DNA of 6,498 nucleotides, from positions 1-6,498 of the IMG/VR virus record IMGVR_UViG_2585427736_000018; one strand, written 5' to 3'. Positions within the stretch are counted from its first letter, which is position 1; every line of letters begins with the position of its first letter. Under the pieces are notes generated by a model that was not told the origin of the DNA, did not search any database, and saw only the letters and a program-made list of their open reading frames with translations. Source of the DNA: a virus. Taxonomy: Duplodnaviria; Heunggongvirae; Uroviricota; Caudoviricetes. The position numbers and the translations under genes were made by a program. This document shows positions 1 through 6,498 of this stretch, piece after piece.

Positions 1-576
1 TTGCATTTGCCAGAGCTTGACGATGTTGCTTGGATGAAGGGTGTATTGATGCTAAATGTAAGGTTTGATTCAGAAAAGGCTTTAGAGGCCATTCTGTACG
101 TCGCCTCTAAAGCACCGATCCCAGATATCTATCATGTCGGAAAAATTCTTTATTATGCTGACAGGTTTCACCTTGAAAGTTTTGGACGCCTCATAACGGG
201 CGATCACTATAACGCTATGAAGGATGGGCCTGTAGCAAGCAACACATACGATATTATAAAAATTGCTCGTGGAGATGGACGTTACATTCCTAATGGTTGT
301 GATGTCGATTCTGTGCGAAAAGCATTTTCTGTATCAGGTATGACGATTGTGCCGAGCCGTGAAGCTGATGAAGACTTTTTTAGTGACTCAGATTTAGAGT
401 GTATTGATAAGTCTATCGCGATGCTTGGAAACATGTCCTTTGAAGCTATCAGAACCATGAGCCATGACGCGGCATGGGAACAGGCAGATCACAATGGTGA
501 GATGTCTTTGGAATCGATAGTTGCACAGCTAAAAAATAGCAAATTAATACTGGATTATCTGAAGAACGGATATTGA
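1..576 (+). CDS. Panacea/DUF4065-domain protein (PanA/SocA/GepA-like putative antitoxin); 5' end may lie upstream of the window
   Basis: Frame 1 is open from base 1 (first codon TTG, first in-window ATG at 34) to stop TGA 574-576. The segment HVGKILYYADRFHLESFGRLITGDHYNAMKDGPVASNTYDII matches the Panacea core pattern as I recall it (K-h-LYYA...G...Y.A...GPV...Y). The C-terminal LECIDKSIAMLGNMSFEAIRTMSHDAAWEQA resembles the family's conserved C-terminal helix. Recognition is from memory, not a search. Confidence 0.6.
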   Translation: MHLPELDDVAWMKGVLMLNVRFDSEKALEAILYVASKAPIPDIYHVGKILYYADRFHLESFGRLITGDHYNAMKDGPVASNTYDIIKIARGDGRYIPNGCDVDSVRKAFSVSGMTIVPSREADEDFFSDSDLECIDKSIAMLGNMSFEAIRTMSHDAAWEQADHNGEMSLESIVAQLKNSKLILDYLKNGY

Positions 577-581
577 TACTT

Positions 582-1043
582 ATGCTGGGTGATTGTTTCC
601 CTCCTGATTTTAAGGCTAATTTTAGTCGTGAAAGAGGTATATCACCCGGTGATGTATTGTATCTTCATTGTGATTTTACGACCCCACCTAAAGTAAAGTA
701 TATGGTGGTTGTTTGCTGTGAACCTCTTTTAGTTCTTCTAATAAATTCAGATATAAATGAATTTATTAAGAGAAACAATGATCTTATGGCTTGTCAGGTC
801 GAAATTAATAGAGAGGACCATGATTTTCTTAAATGGGACTCATTTGTTAATTGCATTGAGGCTCATGCTGCTTTCGATCTTGAAATTATTAAAGAGAAAA
901 TAGCCATCCAATATGGTGACGTGCTAAAAGGTCGCATTACAGATCATTGTATGAGACAAGTTCGATGTGCAGTTGAGATATCTAAAACTATGGTTAAACG
1001 GCATAAAAAACTGATACTCGCTGCTCTTCAACATTATGAATAA
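582..1043 (+). CDS. hypothetical protein, 153 aa; candidate toxin/effector partner of the upstream Panacea-domain gene
   Basis: ATG at 582 lies 5 nt after the upstream stop (in-frame TTG at 573 is the alternative start); stop TAA 1041-1043 sits inside the terminator hairpin. Only a weak GGA Shine-Dalgarno, so translational coupling is likely. Visibly AT-rich. No transmembrane segment or catalytic motif recognised. The toxin role is inferred only from its position beside a Panacea-domain gene. Confidence 0.5.
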   Translation: MLGDCFPPDFKANFSRERGISPGDVLYLHCDFTTPPKVKYMVVVCCEPLLVLLINSDINEFIKRNNDLMACQVEINREDHDFLKWDSFVNCIEAHAAFDLEIIKEKIAIQYGDVLKGRITDHCMRQVRCAVEISKTMVKRHKKLILAALQHYE

Positions 1044-1072
1044 ACCCATCTTTGGATGGGTTTATTCATATT
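1035..1072. terminator. bidirectional intrinsic terminator between convergent transcription units
   Basis: Perfect 16-bp inverted repeat TATGAATAAACCCATC (1035-1050) / GATGGGTTTATTCATA (1055-1070) with 4-nt loop TTTG. GC core CCCATC/GATGGG, with A-rich and T-rich flanks giving a U-rich tail in both orientations. It overlaps the stop of the 582-1043 CDS and lies 7 nt from the stop of the minus-strand 1077-1349 CDS. Confidence 0.7.
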
Positions 1073-1076
1073 CTAT

Positions 1077-1349
1077 TTAAATGAGCCTTTGTTTATGGGT
1101 TCTGACCCTTTCCCACTCAGCACGCCCTTCTTCTCGCCTTTTGTCTATGTATTCCGCAAGATCCTGAATATTGATGCAACGTTTTGCTTTTTGTGATGTG
1201 CCGATGCGATATGTTGGAACGGGCAACTTACAAGCGTTTGCTTTTGCTTCTGCCGTGGCTGGACTCATACCAAAGTACTTTTGGCTAACTGCTGAGAGTT
1301 CAATGTTTGGGGTATTGAATTCAGCCATCAGTAAAAACAAGGTGTTCAT
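1077..1349 (-). CDS. PrtN-family (pyocin-activator-like) small DNA-binding protein; possible excisionase/recombination directionality factor or regulator
   Basis: ATG at 1349-1347 is preceded by GGAG at 6-nt spacing; the ORF track's upstream start at 1376 is a GTG without a better RBS. The N-terminus MNTLFLLMAEF...YIDKRREE resembles PrtN-family proteins found next to integration modules in prophages (recalled similarity). Stop TAA at 1079-1077. Confidence 0.55.
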   Translation of the reverse strand: MNTLFLLMAEFNTPNIELSAVSQKYFGMSPATAEAKANACKLPVPTYRIGTSQKAKRCINIQDLAEYIDKRREEGRAEWERVRTHKQRLI

Positions 1350-1385
1350 AATTTTCTCCATCAAAACCGGCTGCACCCGGGAAAA

Positions 1386-1958
1386 TCATAATTCTGTGCT
1401 GGTGGCAGGAATTAATTTCTGCCAGATAGCGGAAACATATTTTGCCTGATGACGGGCATCAGCCAGGGCGTTGTGCCGTTCGCCATCGAAAGGCATGTCC
1501 ATTTTGGGGTCGAATCCGATGGAACGCCCAAGCGTAACGATCGTGCGTACATCGTGGTCATTCCAGTATGCCCACGGGCAGATTTGTCCTGCTCGCTCAT
1601 AAGCTCCACGTAAAATTACGTTGTCGAAGGTGGCTCCGTTACCCCAGACTTTTAAATATTTCGTATTGTCTGCGTGCCGGTTAATGAAATGATTTAGTTC
1701 TGAGAGAGCATCGCTGATCGACAAAGTATCATCAATACAGATTGCAGCTCGTGCTTCAGGGCTTTGTTTCAACCACCACAGGATGGTATCGCCGTCAGGT
1801 GTAGCTCCTTGCTCCATAGCACTTTCCAGGCTAACAACCGTATAGAATTCTTGTCCGATGTCTCCGGTTTCTGGAGTGAAGAACACCGCGCCAATGGAAA
1901 CGATCGGTGCATCCTTATTTTTCCCCATCGTCTCAAGGTCGATCATTAAGTTGTTCAT
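1386..1958 (-). CDS. phage DEDDh-type 3'-5' exonuclease (DnaQ-like fold)
   Basis: Exo motifs are visible: IDLETMG (D-x-E), WGNGATFDNVIL (Exo II Asp), HNALADARH (H-x4-D). ATG at 1958-1956 is preceded by GGAGGTGA; a GTG at 1961 is the alternative start. The start overlaps the stop of the upstream DUF551 gene. Confidence 0.75.
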   Translation of the reverse strand: MNNLMIDLETMGKNKDAPIVSIGAVFFTPETGDIGQEFYTVVSLESAMEQGATPDGDTILWWLKQSPEARAAICIDDTLSISDALSELNHFINRHADNTKYLKVWGNGATFDNVILRGAYERAGQICPWAYWNDHDVRTIVTLGRSIGFDPKMDMPFDGERHNALADARHQAKYVSAIWQKLIPATSTEL

Positions 1959-2524
1959 CACTTCACCTCCAGCGGCGGTTCCGGTAGCGGCATCCAGTGA
2001 GTTGCTTGCTCAATACCATTACCCGGCTTAATCGTTGCATCTCCGCGCCGAAATGTGCTTCCGGTATAGCGTGCTGAACATATTAGCGGCTCAACCAGAG
2101 AGCTATCGAAATTCACCGAAATAAGCACATTCTGATGCTTCTCAGGCATTCGCTTACTACAGCTTATCCAGCTATCCGGAGTTACCGGATAGTTGCCATT
2201 TACATCGAAGTTTGGCTCTGCGTCCTGAACTAGGAGGATGTAACCATTTTTGGCTGTATCAAGTTCTAACGCCTCGGTGACGGTACCGAAATAGCGATTA
2301 CCTAAATCAGCATCACAAGTGCTTACATCAATGGAAACTTCCATGCCTTCGATTAATTCTGGCAAGTTGTAAGTTTGGCTTACAGGCTCTGCTTCCAGCG
2401 ATACCAGTGCAATTCGTGCCAGTTCTTCCGCTTCTTCTGCTGGCAGTACAACGTTGCTACCCGGTCCGTATGTTTCGCGCCACTGCTGGATTGTCAGCAG
2501 GCGTTCTTTGGTAATAGTGATCAT
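1958..2524 (-). CDS. DUF551-like phage protein
   Basis: ATG at 2524-2522 overlaps the upstream stop in an ATGA arrangement. The C-terminal WMPLPEPP motif is what I recall as the hallmark of DUF551 proteins common in enterobacterial prophage early regions. Acidic protein. Confidence 0.5.
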   Translation of the reverse strand: MITITKERLLTIQQWRETYGPGSNVVLPAEEAEELARIALVSLEAEPVSQTYNLPELIEGMEVSIDVSTCDADLGNRYFGTVTEALELDTAKNGYILLVQDAEPNFDVNGNYPVTPDSWISCSKRMPEKHQNVLISVNFDSSLVEPLICSARYTGSTFRRGDATIKPGNGIEQATHWMPLPEPPLEVK

Positions 2525-3036
2525 GCTGCGTTTCCTTCTTTCTTATTAACAATTACACCGTCATATATTTCATTAAGGTGCCCTCTCAACTCCATGCGCC
2601 TTAATGCAGATAACATGTAATCGCATTCAACCTGCTTATTTCCAGTAAATGGCTTATCGTCAGGATTACCCCAACAGCAATTACCCTTGGGCCACCCATG
2701 TACTTTCCGTACTCTTCCGTTAACAACGTGAAGTAATCCCCAGCCAGCTGGTAAATCCTCAACTGAAATAATTCCCGGCTCACTAATAAAGAATCGCCAG
2801 TCGCCCATTCCAAGAGACGGATTTTTACGGAAACGCTTTTTTCTATCTGCCAACAAGTCAGCACGAGAACACTTCGCCTCTATCAGGCATGATGCTGAAT
2901 TTCTGAATCCCATAGCATCTGGCTGTTCTCCGGTACTGGTTACAGCTATAAAGCGGTCATGAAAACAAACCTTGAACCCGTTGCGCTTAAGGAACTTATA
3001 CGCAATCTGACAGAGTTCGCGGTGTGTTAACGCCAT
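2521..3036 (-). CDS. PD-(D/E)xK nuclease-like phage protein, 171 aa
   Basis: ATG at 3036-3034 is preceded by AAAGGAGAG at 6-nt spacing; the ORF track's longer form starts at a GTG at 3108 and overlaps the upstream small gene, so it is rejected. The motif GEQPDAMGF...(13 aa)...CLIEAKCS fits PD...(D/E)xK spacing. Family assignment is tentative. Confidence 0.5.
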   Translation of the reverse strand: MALTHRELCQIAYKFLKRNGFKVCFHDRFIAVTSTGEQPDAMGFRNSASCLIEAKCSRADLLADRKKRFRKNPSLGMGDWRFFISEPGIISVEDLPAGWGLLHVVNGRVRKVHGWPKGNCCWGNPDDKPFTGNKQVECDYMLSALRRMELRGHLNEIYDGVIVNKKEGNAA

Positions 3037-3037
3037 A

Positions 3038-3226
3038 TCACTCTCCTTTAGTACGCAAGTGGTTTTTCCAGCGGTTTTGCGCCGCGCTGGGCTTTTTGCA
3101 AAAACCACAATCCATCATCCCGTAATGTTTCATTAACCCCACCCGTCGGTTGCTGAGTCTCACCCACTGCCAGACGCCAGGAGCGTTTCTACGAACTAAC
3201 AGAATCTTTGCTTTACGGTTTTTCAT
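3038..3226 (-). CDS. small hypothetical phage protein, 62 aa, basic
   Basis: ATG at 3226-3224 is preceded by AGGAG at about 9-nt spacing. Stop TGA at 3040-3038 is one base upstream of the next gene's ATG (TGAtATG), placing it inside the coupled operon. No recognised domain; contains a single C-x2-C. Confidence 0.45.
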   Translation of the reverse strand: MKNRKAKILLVRRNAPGVWQWVRLSNRRVGLMKHYGMMDCGFCKKPSAAQNRWKNHLRTKGE

Positions 3227-3398
3227 CGTTTTGCTCTCCTGCGTTTCTTTGCTGCTCGTCGTGCCGATGCAATACCGGTATGGCGGCGCTTTGGTGCCGG
3301 GATGATGTTGTCAGCCATCAGGACATGTGGCTTTGCAATTAGCGCAGAAGCCCAAAAACGAGTCGGGTACGGTAACAAGCCGATACATGCCACACGCA

Positions 3399-4046
3399 CT
3401 ACTCACCTCCGTTGATGCGAATGCCAGCGGCACGGGAATCATTCCATCGCTTTACTTCTTCACGAATTACGTCAATGCATTCTTTCGAATCCATTAGGTA
3501 ATCTTCATCAAAAAGCCTTTCCTGTTCGTTTTCTATCGCAACAATGATTGCTTCAACTAACTTTTGTGCCTGAGAACCACTTTCTAACTCTGCAATGCGC
3601 TTCTCTGCGGCTTCCAGCTTCTCGCGCATATCGTCAACGTACTCGACCAGAGATCCGCCAGCAGGAATTTCGCACTCCTCGACCAGTTGGAAGTAGATAT
3701 CAGCTGCGGCCCGTGTGTTGCTATGCCTAGCGTCGCCCATCTCACCTTCACGAAGAGCATCGCGTTCGGCGGTAAGATTGGCTATTTTGCTGTCTTTGCC
3801 TTCCAGCTCAACGCGCAGCTTCCCTACCGTAAGCGCAATATCCTCGTTCTCCTGGTCACGGCGTTTGATGTATTGCTGGTTTCTTTCCCGTTCATCCAAC
3901 AATGCCAGCGCGATATCTGGCGAAAAGTGCTTCATAAAATCGTTAAGCGCATTAATTCGCTGATCGAAAGGCATTACAGGTGCTTCACCAGCAATTTTTG
4001 TTTTTTCAGCGATTTCACGAAGCTTTTGATAATCAATCTTGCTCAC
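3399..4046 (-). CDS. Ead/Ea22-like coiled-coil phage protein
   Basis: GTG start at 4046-4044 is preceded by a strong AAGGAGG at 6-nt spacing and overlaps the upstream stop (GTGA). The N-terminus MSKIDYQKLREIAEK and the Glu/Arg/Leu-rich heptad-like middle resemble lambda Ea22-family early-left proteins (recalled). Confidence 0.5.
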   Translation of the reverse strand: MSKIDYQKLREIAEKTKIAGEAPVMPFDQRINALNDFMKHFSPDIALALLDERERNQQYIKRRDQENEDIALTVGKLRVELEGKDSKIANLTAERDALREGEMGDARHSNTRAAADIYFQLVEECEIPAGGSLVEYVDDMREKLEAAEKRIAELESGSQAQKLVEAIIVAIENEQERLFDEDYLMDSKECIDVIREEVKRWNDSRAAGIRINGGE

Positions 4047-4591
4047 TGGTTGCCTCCTTTGCGAAGCTCTGCAGCGAAATATACAGCTGCGGAAACAATA
4101 GCTGCATGTCGGTATTCACCATCAGAAAATAAAGAATCTCCCTTAAGTGCATTGACGATACTCTGATGATTTTTTGCCAGCATCTCCACGCCCTGCGCCC
4201 GTACTTCAGCCAGAAAAGCATCGGTGGCTGGCATATTTCCTGTTGCCTTCATGGCCTCCAAAATAACCAGAACGCCATCTCGCCCAACCACCTCAGCGAT
4301 AACCTCGGTGTTGTCGCCAACAACATCGCAGAATGCCTGAACTGCCTTACGAGCCAGTTCATTCTCCGCCGCCAGCGCCGAAAACTTCTCGTGTGCCAAC
4401 TTAACAGCCGCATCAGCCTGCTTAATTGACTCAATCGCTCTCTGCTGGTCTTCGGACAGAGCCGAAATCTTGGCCTCCGCTTCAGCAAATTTACGCACCA
4501 GATATTCAGCGTTTGTTTCGTTAACTTTTAAATCTCGTGGTACACATTTCCCGCGAAGAAACCCTTCCATTTCGAAAACATTCATGCGCAT
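4043..4591 (-). CDS. hypothetical phage protein, 182 aa, Ala-rich with predicted coiled-coil N-terminal half; sits where yfdS sits in CPS-53
   Basis: ATG at 4591-4589 is preceded by GGAG at 8-nt spacing; the coding region overlaps the yfdR-like stop by 10 nt (an alternative ATG at 4585 gives an ATGA overlap). No recognised catalytic motif. Confidence 0.5.
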   Translation of the reverse strand: MRMNVFEMEGFLRGKCVPRDLKVNETNAEYLVRKFAEAEAKISALSEDQQRAIESIKQADAAVKLAHEKFSALAAENELARKAVQAFCDVVGDNTEVIAEVVGRDGVLVILEAMKATGNMPATDAFLAEVRAQGVEMLAKNHQSIVNALKGDSLFSDGEYRHAAIVSAAVYFAAELRKGGNQ

Positions 4592-5118
4592 TTGCGTAAC
4601 TCCGATAACTCGTTAAAACGTTCCATAAACATCCCATAGGCATGGCCTGGCGACAGTGGAATCACGTTGAACATCTCTGTTGCCGGGATGCCTTCCAGTA
4701 CAGGCCAGAAAGAGCCATCATCAAGCCCGAGATCGCGGCGTTCGGTTGCCAGCATGATAAGATCGGCATATTTCACGGGCGTGCTCATAACCGGGGGTAA
4801 CCCGTATTTCTCACGGATTACGGCGTCTATTTTTTCTTCCATCCGTTTATAGTCAGGAAGAAGGCGTTTCAGTGGCGCGGGGATGTCCTGACAATACGCT
4901 TCTGTTGCATCATGCATTAACGCTTCGAAAGCAAACTCCTGCGGTACCAGTTGGCTGCAAAGCACCGCATGTTGGGCGACGCTGTAGAAGTGTGAAAGAT
5001 GTCCTGCAAAGCGACAGATATTTGAAAGGGAAACCGCGATATCGTTAATCACGATGTCGTCTTTATCTATCCTGTCATAATAAAAATGCTTCCCGGAAAA
5101 AGTTTTAATAAATGACAT
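4582..5118 (-). CDS. yfdR: HD-domain phosphohydrolase, YfdR-like 5'-deoxynucleotidase
   Basis: ATG at 5118-5116 is preceded by GGAG at 7-nt spacing (the ORF track's longer form starts at a GTG at 5145). The product is 178 aa, the length I recall for E. coli YfdR. HD motifs are visible: AQHAV (His), LMHDATEAY (His-Asp) and a downstream Asp in CQDIP. Confidence 0.7.
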   Translation of the reverse strand: MSFIKTFSGKHFYYDRIDKDDIVINDIAVSLSNICRFAGHLSHFYSVAQHAVLCSQLVPQEFAFEALMHDATEAYCQDIPAPLKRLLPDYKRMEEKIDAVIREKYGLPPVMSTPVKYADLIMLATERRDLGLDDGSFWPVLEGIPATEMFNVIPLSPGHAYGMFMERFNELSELRKCA

Positions 5119-5211
5119 TTTGTTCTCCACGTATATGCGCTGCACCGCGCTGAATTCTGGTAAAAGGAAGCCCTCACCATCCGGTGATTATTGAGTTAAT
5201 TACGTTTCCAT

Positions 5212-5233
5212 AAATGCCCCCGCAGGGGCATTT
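5212..5233 (-). other. intergenic stem-loop between yfdQ-like and yfdR-like genes (possible attenuator or mRNA-stabilising hairpin)
   Basis: Perfect 9-bp inverted repeat AAATGCCCC (5212-5220) / GGGGCATTT (5225-5233) with loop CGCA, 12 nt downstream of the yfdQ-like stop on the minus strand. No clean U-tract follows in either orientation, so it is not called a terminator. Confidence 0.45.
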
Positions 5234-5245
5234 GCAGTAATGAAA

Positions 5246-6070
5246 TCAGGCGGTGAAAGTACCAATAAAGGTTTCGACTTTGCTGTCTTTGAATTTCTCA
5301 ACAAGCAGATCACGAAATTCGTTAGCCATTTCTTCCTGCACCGCTTCCAGCTGAATAATGCGCAGAACCAGTACAGGACGATCGCCAGTGATAATGCTGA
5401 GGCGTAATTTAAATGGACGTTCTTTCAGACCTTCAAACGGAACGCATTTAAATTCAAATGCCACTGGCATAATATCTTTGGTCTTCGCTTCGACAGACTC
5501 CATCAGGGAGCGTTTGCCGCTGAAGTCATTATCTTCAAAATCAGCGGTCTGGTTTGCTTCAATCGTGATTTTACGGACCGCCGCAGCCGCTTTTGTTGCC
5601 TGAATGGTGTCACCATTAGCATCAAAGCCCACAAGGTAGTCGGCCCAGTCTTCAATCCATTCTGCCAGTGATTTCTGGGAGTTACGCTCGCCATTAACAG
5701 ACAACAGAGCAGAGAACGGTGCTGTCTTTTTCAGTTTGAGAGTGGCGGTGTTATCTGCGTGACCTGGTTCATCAATAGTACCCAGGTTAAGCACACTGAC
5801 GGCACGCATATTATCAGCATCGATAAAGCAGCGGGTGCCTTCATCTGCAAGATCTTTAGAATAACGGGTAAAGTCATCGATGCTGGCAGTGGAAAGCGCA
5901 CCACGGAAACGGAAGCGATTTAAATTAAATTTTTCCAGATCATGAATGCGGAAATTCTCAGGCAATGCCACAGCATCGGCACCAATCTTACTGATAATTT
6001 CATTAACACCCTGAGCAGAAATAAGGGCATGGATTTGATTAATTGCGGTTGCGTCTAAGTTCTGAGACAT
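5246..6070 (-). CDS. yfdQ: DUF2303-family phage protein, YfdQ-like
   Basis: ATG at 6070-6068 is preceded by GAGGA at 6-nt spacing. The product is 274 aa, the length I recall for E. coli CPS-53 YfdQ, and it sits immediately upstream of the yfdR-like gene as in CPS-53. Confidence 0.65.
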
Positions 6071-6135
6071 AATAAGTCCTCACTATATAAAGATATTCAG
6101 TGATGAGATAAATAATCAGTTAATTAAAAACGATA

Positions 6136-6498
6136 TTAACGACCTGCTGCGCGGAGTTTTCCGTCAGGTTCACCGGCAAGAGTCAGTAACTGTCCCTGGT
6201 CTTCCTGCAGAATAGTCAGGCGACCACCGCGATTGACATACATCGGTGTTTCGGTGGTGTCTTCTTCGGAAATATTCCCGCGGTTAGTCGGGCGATCATA
6301 TGAGAGTTTGTGTTTGATTTTCACACGGTTCTCATCAAATGGTTCGATTTCCAGGTTGAGTGAGACCTTACCTTTGGTTTTCGTGTTCATCACACCGGAA
6401 GCGACTTCACTGAGAACTGCGCCGATTTTGGTTTCAAATACGCCGCCGTCCAGCTCCCCGATAAATGCCTGCACATCAGTACTGCGTTCGCTAGCCAT
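6136..6498 (-). CDS. hypothetical phage protein in the yfdP position; start codon coincides with the window edge
   Basis: ATG at 6498-6496 is the last three bases of the window, so the RBS cannot be seen and the ORF could extend further. Stop TAA at 6138-6136. The 120-aa product and its position upstream of yfdQ are consistent with a YfdP-like gene (synteny only). Confidence 0.45.
   Translation of the reverse strand: MASERSTDVQAFIGELDGGVFETKIGAVLSEVASGVMNTKTKGKVSLNLEIEPFDENRVKIKHKLSYDRPTNRGNISEEDTTETPMYVNRGGRLTILQEDQGQLLTLAGEPDGKLRAAGR

Follow-up and report, generated by a model that had tools for sequence, protein, structure and literature searches.

What do two AT-rich genes at the edge of a phage early region, transcribed against all their neighbours, contribute to the element that carries them? 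The question arises from a window of 6,498 nucleotides (IMG/VR virus record IMGVR_UViG_2585427736_000018, positions 1 to 6,498; Caudoviricetes), the whole stretch of DNA considered here, in which positions 1-1076 hold two plus-strand open reading frames (ORF1 and ORF2). The probable answer is that this segment is a self-contained moron encoding a PanA-PanT pair of type II, a toxin-antitoxin couple in which PanT would be an endoribonuclease, with phage exclusion, prophage retention or both as the outcome. The slot that it occupies lies in a dusA-integrating lambdoid prophage, with the attachment site on one side and the excisionase gene on the other.

The first partner declares itself by domain. 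Panacea antitoxins (PanA) pair with dozens of unrelated toxins (PanT), and nine such pairs have been validated (Kurata et al. 2022, PNAS, PMC8832971). ORF1 is open from base 1 and matches the Pfam family PF13274, SocA_Panacea (DUF4065), over residues 48-159 of its 191 amino acids (aa), with 73 bits (E=5e-20; cut-off 25.7); it also matches PHROG 1281, and RefSeq, placing the start 6 nt left of the window, names the product ‘Panacea domain-containing protein’. The annotated lengths of PanA disagree across databases (175, 184, 189, 191 and 193 aa). Three features make ATG49 the likely true start: the Photorhabdus and Morganella orthologues start at residues matching it (MLNxRF/MVNIKF), the sequence ahead of MLNVRF differs among strains, and GAAGGG stands 7 nt 5' of it. 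On this choice panA (49..576, plus strand) would encode a stand-alone Panacea antitoxin of 175 aa, preceded by a 5' leader (1..48, plus strand) that RefSeq treats as coding.

The second partner, ORF2 or panT (582..1043, plus strand, 153 aa), is never far from the first. In all 15 distinct genome loci a panA gene stands directly upstream of the ORF2 homologue and in the same orientation, and among 32 IMG/VR viral loci this holds wherever the upstream DNA is included. The identities of the two proteins drop in parallel: PanA/PanT stand at 62/56% in Photorhabdus, 56/51% in Morganella and 40/42% in Idiomarina. Decay is lopsided. In four of nine Photorhabdus species representatives (akhurstii, australis, tasmaniensis and viridis; loci L014, L017, L018 and L019) panT is frameshifted, truncated or partly deleted, and panA is full length in three of these four; 82 contigs carry an E. 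coli PanT variant whose frame shifts after K106. A toxin and its antidote would be expected to decay in this way, the downstream gene degenerating while the upstream one is kept.

More distant copies of the pair, at 45-60% identity, occupy other positions in predicted phages: convergent with a tyrosine integrase (L049, L053); directly 5' of a tape-measure gene (L051); immediately ahead of a holin, or close to a lysozyme and following a DNA methylase (L057, L056); and, in L048, directly followed by a gene at 4702-5679 whose 325-aa product has an AbiJ N-terminal domain (PF18863, E=1.2e-11). In Morganella, the pair is flanked by dinI and by the integrase gene of a further dusA element. Since these include several classic moron positions, the pair behaves as a mobile two-gene unit.

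The nature of PanT has to be approached through its fold. ORF2 matches no Pfam or NCBIfam family, and PHROGs gave nothing useful. A word-indexed search found its relatives in 41 clusters at 90% identity, from Enterobacterales and Idiomarina; an exhaustive phmmer search found 711 clusters at 50% identity (E<=1e-3), nearly all of about 150 aa. Judged by these relatives, ORF2 is a real, conserved protein. Its AlphaFold2 model, made from an alignment of 26 relatives, is a confident one, with a predicted local distance difference test score (pLDDT) of 90.3 and a predicted template modelling score (pTM) of 0.84, and Foldseek with this model independently ranked MazF-mt3 first (E=7.6e-4, probability 1.0). 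As modelled, ORF2 has the SH3-like barrel of the CcdB/MazF superfamily: a MazF/Kid-like core at about residues 20-120, to which helices at residues 2-17 and 139-148 are added, the latter an extra C-terminal helix. Two residues, K39 and S87, are invariant in the family, and G23, K37, N55, F82, L83 and C91 nearly so; N55-S56 falls at the place of the MazF Thr/Ser after strand 3, by strand register and not by superposition.

The catalogue of Panacea pairs leads to a similar assignment. By exact look-up, the proteins of locus L007 are the Photorhabdus namnaonensis pair WP_065390172.1/WP_065390163.1, which stands in predicted cluster pT5/T5 in the entries listed from Dataset S1 of Kurata et al. (PMC8832971); the HHpred note given for T5 in those entries reads EndoA/MazF/PemK/CcdB, at ~99.5%, and agrees with the fold search on ORF2. 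By way of this orthologue, which is 56% identical in the toxin, the window pair is placed by sequence as a member of a catalogued, unvalidated PanAT cluster, T5. Placement of ORF2 in the validated cluster T6 was also considered, and was rejected: P. namnaonensis has two pairs, and that of the ORF2 orthologue is T5.

The initial annotation had read positions 1-1076 as a compositionally distinct moron, more AT-rich by eye than its flanks, transcribed against the early-left operon and lying beyond a PrtN-like gene. Measurement bears all of this out. Guanine-plus-cytosine (GC) content is 0.385 in 1-1076 and 0.472 in 1077-6498, and the segment falls under every equal-sized window of the remainder (lowest 1076-bp stretch 0.434; mean 0.474, sd 0.014). 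The deficit is uneven: ORF1 has 0.417 (0.38 at third codon positions, GC3) and ORF2 0.351 (GC3 0.23); GC3 is 0.40-0.52 in the nine minus-strand genes. The codon analysis proposed along with the GC check returned less, as rare-codon use is only slightly up in the two cassette genes (0.10-0.11 vs 0.01-0.14); the compositional signal is thus one of AT at third positions, not of rare codons. The long ORFs of the segment (1-576 and 573/582-1043) lie on the plus strand and converge with the early-left operon, and every long ORF from 1077 on lies on the minus strand, in an unbroken run. The gene at the junction, xis (1077..1349, minus strand), is a PrtN-family excisionase (PF11112, E=3.9e-23; PHROG 1300 ‘excisionase’, E=8.6e-40) and forms the conserved right flank of the slot.

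The right boundary, 1076, is accurate: phages without the cassette align from 1077, 1088 or 1099. On the left, the boundary is outside the window, the variable segment beginning ~42-85 bp before base 1. The IMG/VR provirus contig L032 (IMGVR_UViG_2687453530_000006, 1-5040) has ORF2 at 582-1040 from the contig end, the same as in the window; the window start is probably a cut made by provirus prediction within the cassette leader. Between the convergent panT and xis, the terminator scan found TATGAATAAACCCATCTTTGGATGGGTTTATTCATA then TTCTATTT, a hairpin (1035..1070) whose 16-bp stem overlaps the panT stop codon and whose T-rich run extends to 1078.

Lysogens and phages together locate the slot. 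In E. coli E189, DA33137 and CE0021a the cassette directly follows attL, a duplicated 5' fragment of dusA, to the left of which are the host genes zur, yjbJ, dinF and lexA; in these three strains there is no integrase on the attL side. The order in phages mEp460, Lys8385Vzw and SKA5 is dinI, int, a dusA-like attachment site (attP), a variable cassette, then xis. It follows that the integrase expected beyond the left edge by the initial annotation is found there only when the map is drawn as a circle or as in the virion (int, dusA-like attP, cassette, xis), and is not there in the integrated prophage. Past the exonuclease the three lysogens carry different early-left genes; the cassette thus goes with more than one mosaic.

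A megablast query of positions 1-1400 against 5,426 complete E. coli genomes found the xis/exonuclease part in 741 and the whole query in 46. No cassette of the window type is present in the 11 sequenced phage records that share xis, whose similarity begins at 1077-1099. Counted with queries built from each of the other arrangements, four alternative cassettes occupy the slot. Commonest is the mEp460 type (L002, 4019-4922; 358 genomes), a 177-aa protein without Pfam match and a 57-aa protein; then the Lys8385Vzw type (L021, 1721-2922; 193 genomes), whose 190-aa PanA and 139-aa partner are followed by the same 57-aa protein; the phiSTEC1575 type (L003, 308-1352; 78 genomes), a PanA of 157 aa and a 182-aa protein with a hydrophobic tail; and the PhiR40 type (L024, 222-1212; 48 genomes), a 179-aa protein and a YafO-family toxin. 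With the window type (1-1076; PanA and the MazF-fold T5 PanT; 46 genomes), the five cover 723 of the 741 genomes, the four alternatives making up 677. The comparison with related phages that the initial annotation called for therefore supports its moron and hot-spot reading: the segment has the distinct composition, the terminator of its own and the presence or absence among relatives by which morons, in the sense of Hendrix, are recognized.

Four of the five slot cassettes are toxin-antitoxin-like, three with PanA pairs and one with a YafO pair. The three slot PanA proteins have at most ~30% local identity, which indicates that whole cassettes are exchanged and not toxins alone; origin of neighbouring cassettes by a swap of the toxin only was rejected on the same figure. 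PADLOC models match no cassette at the slot. A literature search returned nothing on the dusA-phage slot or on the PhiR (ECOR) phages, though the PhiR GenBank records already label PanA and PanT.

The flanks of the alternatives are also informative. Every alternative cassette closes with a hairpin of its own, AACCC...GGGTT, located as in the window type immediately ahead of the xis stop codon. On the left flank, the attP arm is common to all cassette types as far as ...GGGAACCTG; between the window and Lys8385 types the identity continues to the end of a TTGACC hexamer, where it stops, and the PhiR40 type keeps this hexamer. The region compared is L001 7916-7982 (window -85 to -19), aligned with L021 and L024. 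The sole plus-strand promoter-like site, TTGACC-18-TAAGAT, is sigma-70-like and lies 19-48 nt left of base 1 (L001 7953-7982): the shared TTGACC is its putative -35, and each cassette type has its own -10-like element. The arrangement suggests an upstream region that stays in common while the cassettes behind it are exchanged.

Some features of the other occupants may be recorded here. The 177-aa mEp460 gp23 (L002, 4019-4552), the commonest occupant, has neither a Pfam nor a PADLOC match; N-acetyltransferase is the label given to it in the name of one UniRef cluster. The 57-aa protein after it is 95% identical to the third gene product of the Lys8385Vzw cassette. The 139-aa Lys8385Vzw partner (L021, 2290-2709), when compared by hhalign, weakly matches the profile of the ORF2 family across VLVVN...DHRFIKHPSYV (E=8e-4, probability 24%), and its gene overlaps that of its PanA by 4 nt, like the Enterobacterales entries listed for the validated T6 of Kurata et al.; this partner may be another MazF-like PanT.

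How such a pair could act can be set out in steps. The pair would be expressed in the lysogen, probably from its own promoter. PanT would be a growth-arresting enzyme, most likely an endoribonuclease, as the PanAT and MazF literature leads one to expect: two of the validated PanTs are predicted to be MazF-like, and both inhibit translation (PMC8832971). PanA would bind PanT directly and hold the toxin inactive; all nine validated PanA pairs form complexes, consistent with direct neutralization (PMC8832971), and stand-alone Panacea domains are described as neutralizing toxins directly, with Panacea proposed as a possible sensor (PMC10440598). Once a second phage infects, or the prophage is lost, the toxin would be set free and the cell would be arrested. 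The result would be phage exclusion by abortive infection, retention of the prophage, or both.

A bolder account goes further on each point: the slot would be a dedicated toxin-antitoxin exchange site, at least three types standing behind a shared -35; the T5 PanT would be a non-canonical MazF-fold enzyme, with Lys for Arg and an added helical module; Panacea would sense phages; and the whole would be a new abortive-infection system. Taken together this seems somewhat unlikely.

Several observations weigh against the account of the pair as a defensive or retentive toxin-antitoxin moron with a MazF-like enzyme. Its biological role, whether defence or retention, is something that we infer and do not observe. 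The promoter-like site scores 9/12, and such sites are no commoner here than in shuffled sequence. By sequence ORF2 has no significant link to MazF. Pfam PemK_toxin is matched by none of 55 diverse members of the ORF2 family (E<=0.1); hhalign of the family against Bacillus subtilis EndoA gives a probability of 2.9%, a non-significant alignment that pairs DSFVNCIEAH with DSVILLEQIR; a search of PDB sequences with the ORF2 profile found no match. The invariant K39 is apparently at the position of the MazF catalytic Arg (again by strand register and not superposition). The sole T5 member tested, from Chryseobacterium bovis, is entered as ‘Toxic’, that is, toxic and not rescued by its PanA in E. 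coli, in the Dataset S1 entries listed (PMC8832971); T5 is thus a predicted and not a validated toxin-antitoxin family. Last, PADLOC-DB v2 gives PanA no match and ORF2 one at chance level only (E=0.017).

One way to understand the position of the pair is to suppose that it is chiefly an addiction module, acting by post-segregational killing: cells that excise or delete the prophage would be killed, and other phages would not be its main target. The pair stands at the very end of the prophage, adjoining attL and the excisionase gene; the cassettes of the slot are toxin-antitoxin-like in four cases of five, the three PanA pairs and the YafO pair; and no known defence-system model matches. This perspective has difficulty with the rest of the distribution. 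Copies of the pair are also seen in moron slots in the middle of phage genomes, ahead of tail and lysis genes, and one lies beside the AbiJ-domain gene, as fits a role as cargo or in defence; moreover, the toxin genes decay readily, so that retention would exert weak pressure on them. Addiction as the chief function is unlikely; defence and retention could both hold.

A second perspective keeps the pair and changes the target: PanT would be CcdB-like, not an RNase, and would poison DNA gyrase or another non-RNA target by means of the same SH3-like barrel. CcdB is among the names in the HHpred note for T5, and the superfamily assigned to the model includes it; the place of the catalytic Arg and the absence of a PemK_toxin match have just been mentioned. 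The first rank in the structure search went to MazF-mt3, and the validated MazF-like PanTs inhibit translation. A non-RNA target appears quite improbable, and a MazF-like endoribonuclease is the preferred reading of PanT.

Could it be that no toxin is present? ORF2 would then be an accessory protein of MazF fold that does no harm, with the Panacea protein serving some other purpose related to the phage. Eight PanTs tested by Kurata et al. were non-toxic in E. coli (PMC8832971), and the unrescued T5 member also points this way. Against this stand the strict adjacency and co-divergence of the two genes (all 15 genome loci, and the viral loci wherever upstream DNA is included), the repeated inactivation of the downstream gene while the upstream one survives, and the fold of ORF2, that of a classic toxin family; this possibility is very doubtful. 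Least probable is a type VI mode like that of SocAB, in which the Panacea protein would block nothing and deliver the toxin to ClpXP for degradation: SocA is the founding Panacea-domain protein and some records say ‘SocA family protein’, but the NCBIfam SocA equivalog NF047745 gives PanA 17.4 bits against a cut-off of 190, on which SocAB membership was rejected, the nine validated pairs all form complexes consistent with direct neutralization, and the toxin fold is MazF-like.

An implication of the preferred reading, a PanA-PanT moron, is modest in one respect: a predicted, unvalidated PanT cluster gains a phage-borne member from E. coli, and as phage cargo the pair is fairly ordinary. The most useful by-product is the five-way cassette polymorphism with its apparently shared promoter region. 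A single slot, in a prophage family common in E. coli (741 of 5,426 genomes), holds five interchangeable cassettes that include three unrelated PanA pairs; this natural allelic series could reveal what Panacea antitoxins sense, and whether lysogen protection or prophage retention is served. In addition, about 700 protein clusters (50% identity) that lack a Pfam family can be labelled as candidate PanTs of MazF fold.

The remainder of the window is of a familiar kind. The genes past xis form an early-left arm like that of CPS-53/KplE1, with an Rv2179c-like exonuclease, DUF551, Ead/Ea22, a YfdR-like HD hydrolase and DUF2303/YfdQ. A 195-aa ORF (2521-3108, minus strand) is matched by PHROGs 9263 and 631, both of unknown function, only from about residue 20-25, so that its real start is probably an internal Met (MALTHRE...); it may be a nuclease, to judge by an ...IEAKCS... 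stretch and a weak match to a ‘DNA repair protein’ PHROG. The apparent 290-bp gap from the Ea22-like gene to this ORF holds two small back-to-back ORFs on the minus strand, one of 58 aa (3223-3399) beside the Ea22-like gene and one of 62 aa (3038-3226) beside the 195-aa ORF; their ends abut their neighbours, as in a tightly packed operon. Elsewhere in such arms, early-left ORFs of 125-188 aa (L001, 10839-11216; L021, 3860-4426) are called ‘valyl-tRNA synthetase’ in RefSeq/GenBank, a label that looks like a propagated annotation error.

Comparison with known systems can begin with the closest. The window pair resembles the T5 entries of Kurata et al. in its Photorhabdus orthologues (56% identical in the toxin, 62% in PanA), in the antitoxin-first order, in the short intergenic gap, in a PanA without N-terminal domain and in the EndoA/MazF/PemK/CcdB assignment. 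It differs in source: there is no E. coli T5 entry, no phage-borne T5 entry and no entry for the window accessions among those listed from Dataset S1. The validated MazF-like PanATs, of Pseudomonas moraviensis (T6) and Bifidobacterium ruminantium (T25), have the same layout of a Panacea protein with a toxin of predicted EndoA/PemK/MazF fold, but belong to sequence clusters other than T5.

The better-known toxin-antitoxin systems of this fold offer another comparison. Unlike MazEF, Kis-Kid and PemIK, the window pair has a Panacea-domain protein, not MazE or PemI, as antitoxin. Its toxin differs from MazF, Kid and PemK in having no PemK_toxin match, in being ~40 residues longer and in its added helices, and from MazF in probably having Lys for the catalytic Arg, as far as strand register can tell.

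Within the slot itself, a comparison can be made with the pair of phiSTEC1575-Stx2k, PhiR47_1 and 1720a-02. It occupies the same place, from the dusA-type attP to xis, is likewise Panacea-first and ends in a hairpin of its own; GenBank PV340566 labels the genes of this Panacea-first pair PanA and PanT. The proteins are another matter: the PanA is only 32% identical, over 40 residues, and the 182-aa partner, with its hydrophobic C-terminus, is unrelated. Identity of the phiSTEC1575-type pair with the validated membrane-toxin PanAT of E. coli STEC O31 has a matching 22-nt gap as its only sign; the accession look-up did not confirm it. On the wider scale of phage cargo, the slot invites comparison with the variable hot spots for defence genes in P2-like phages and P4-like satellites (Rousset et al. 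2022, PMC9122126). Those belong to another phage family and another position, and the cassettes known from the window slot are without PADLOC match; what the two have in common is a fixed position within a family of temperate elements, conserved bounding genes and a choice of alternative small cassettes between them.

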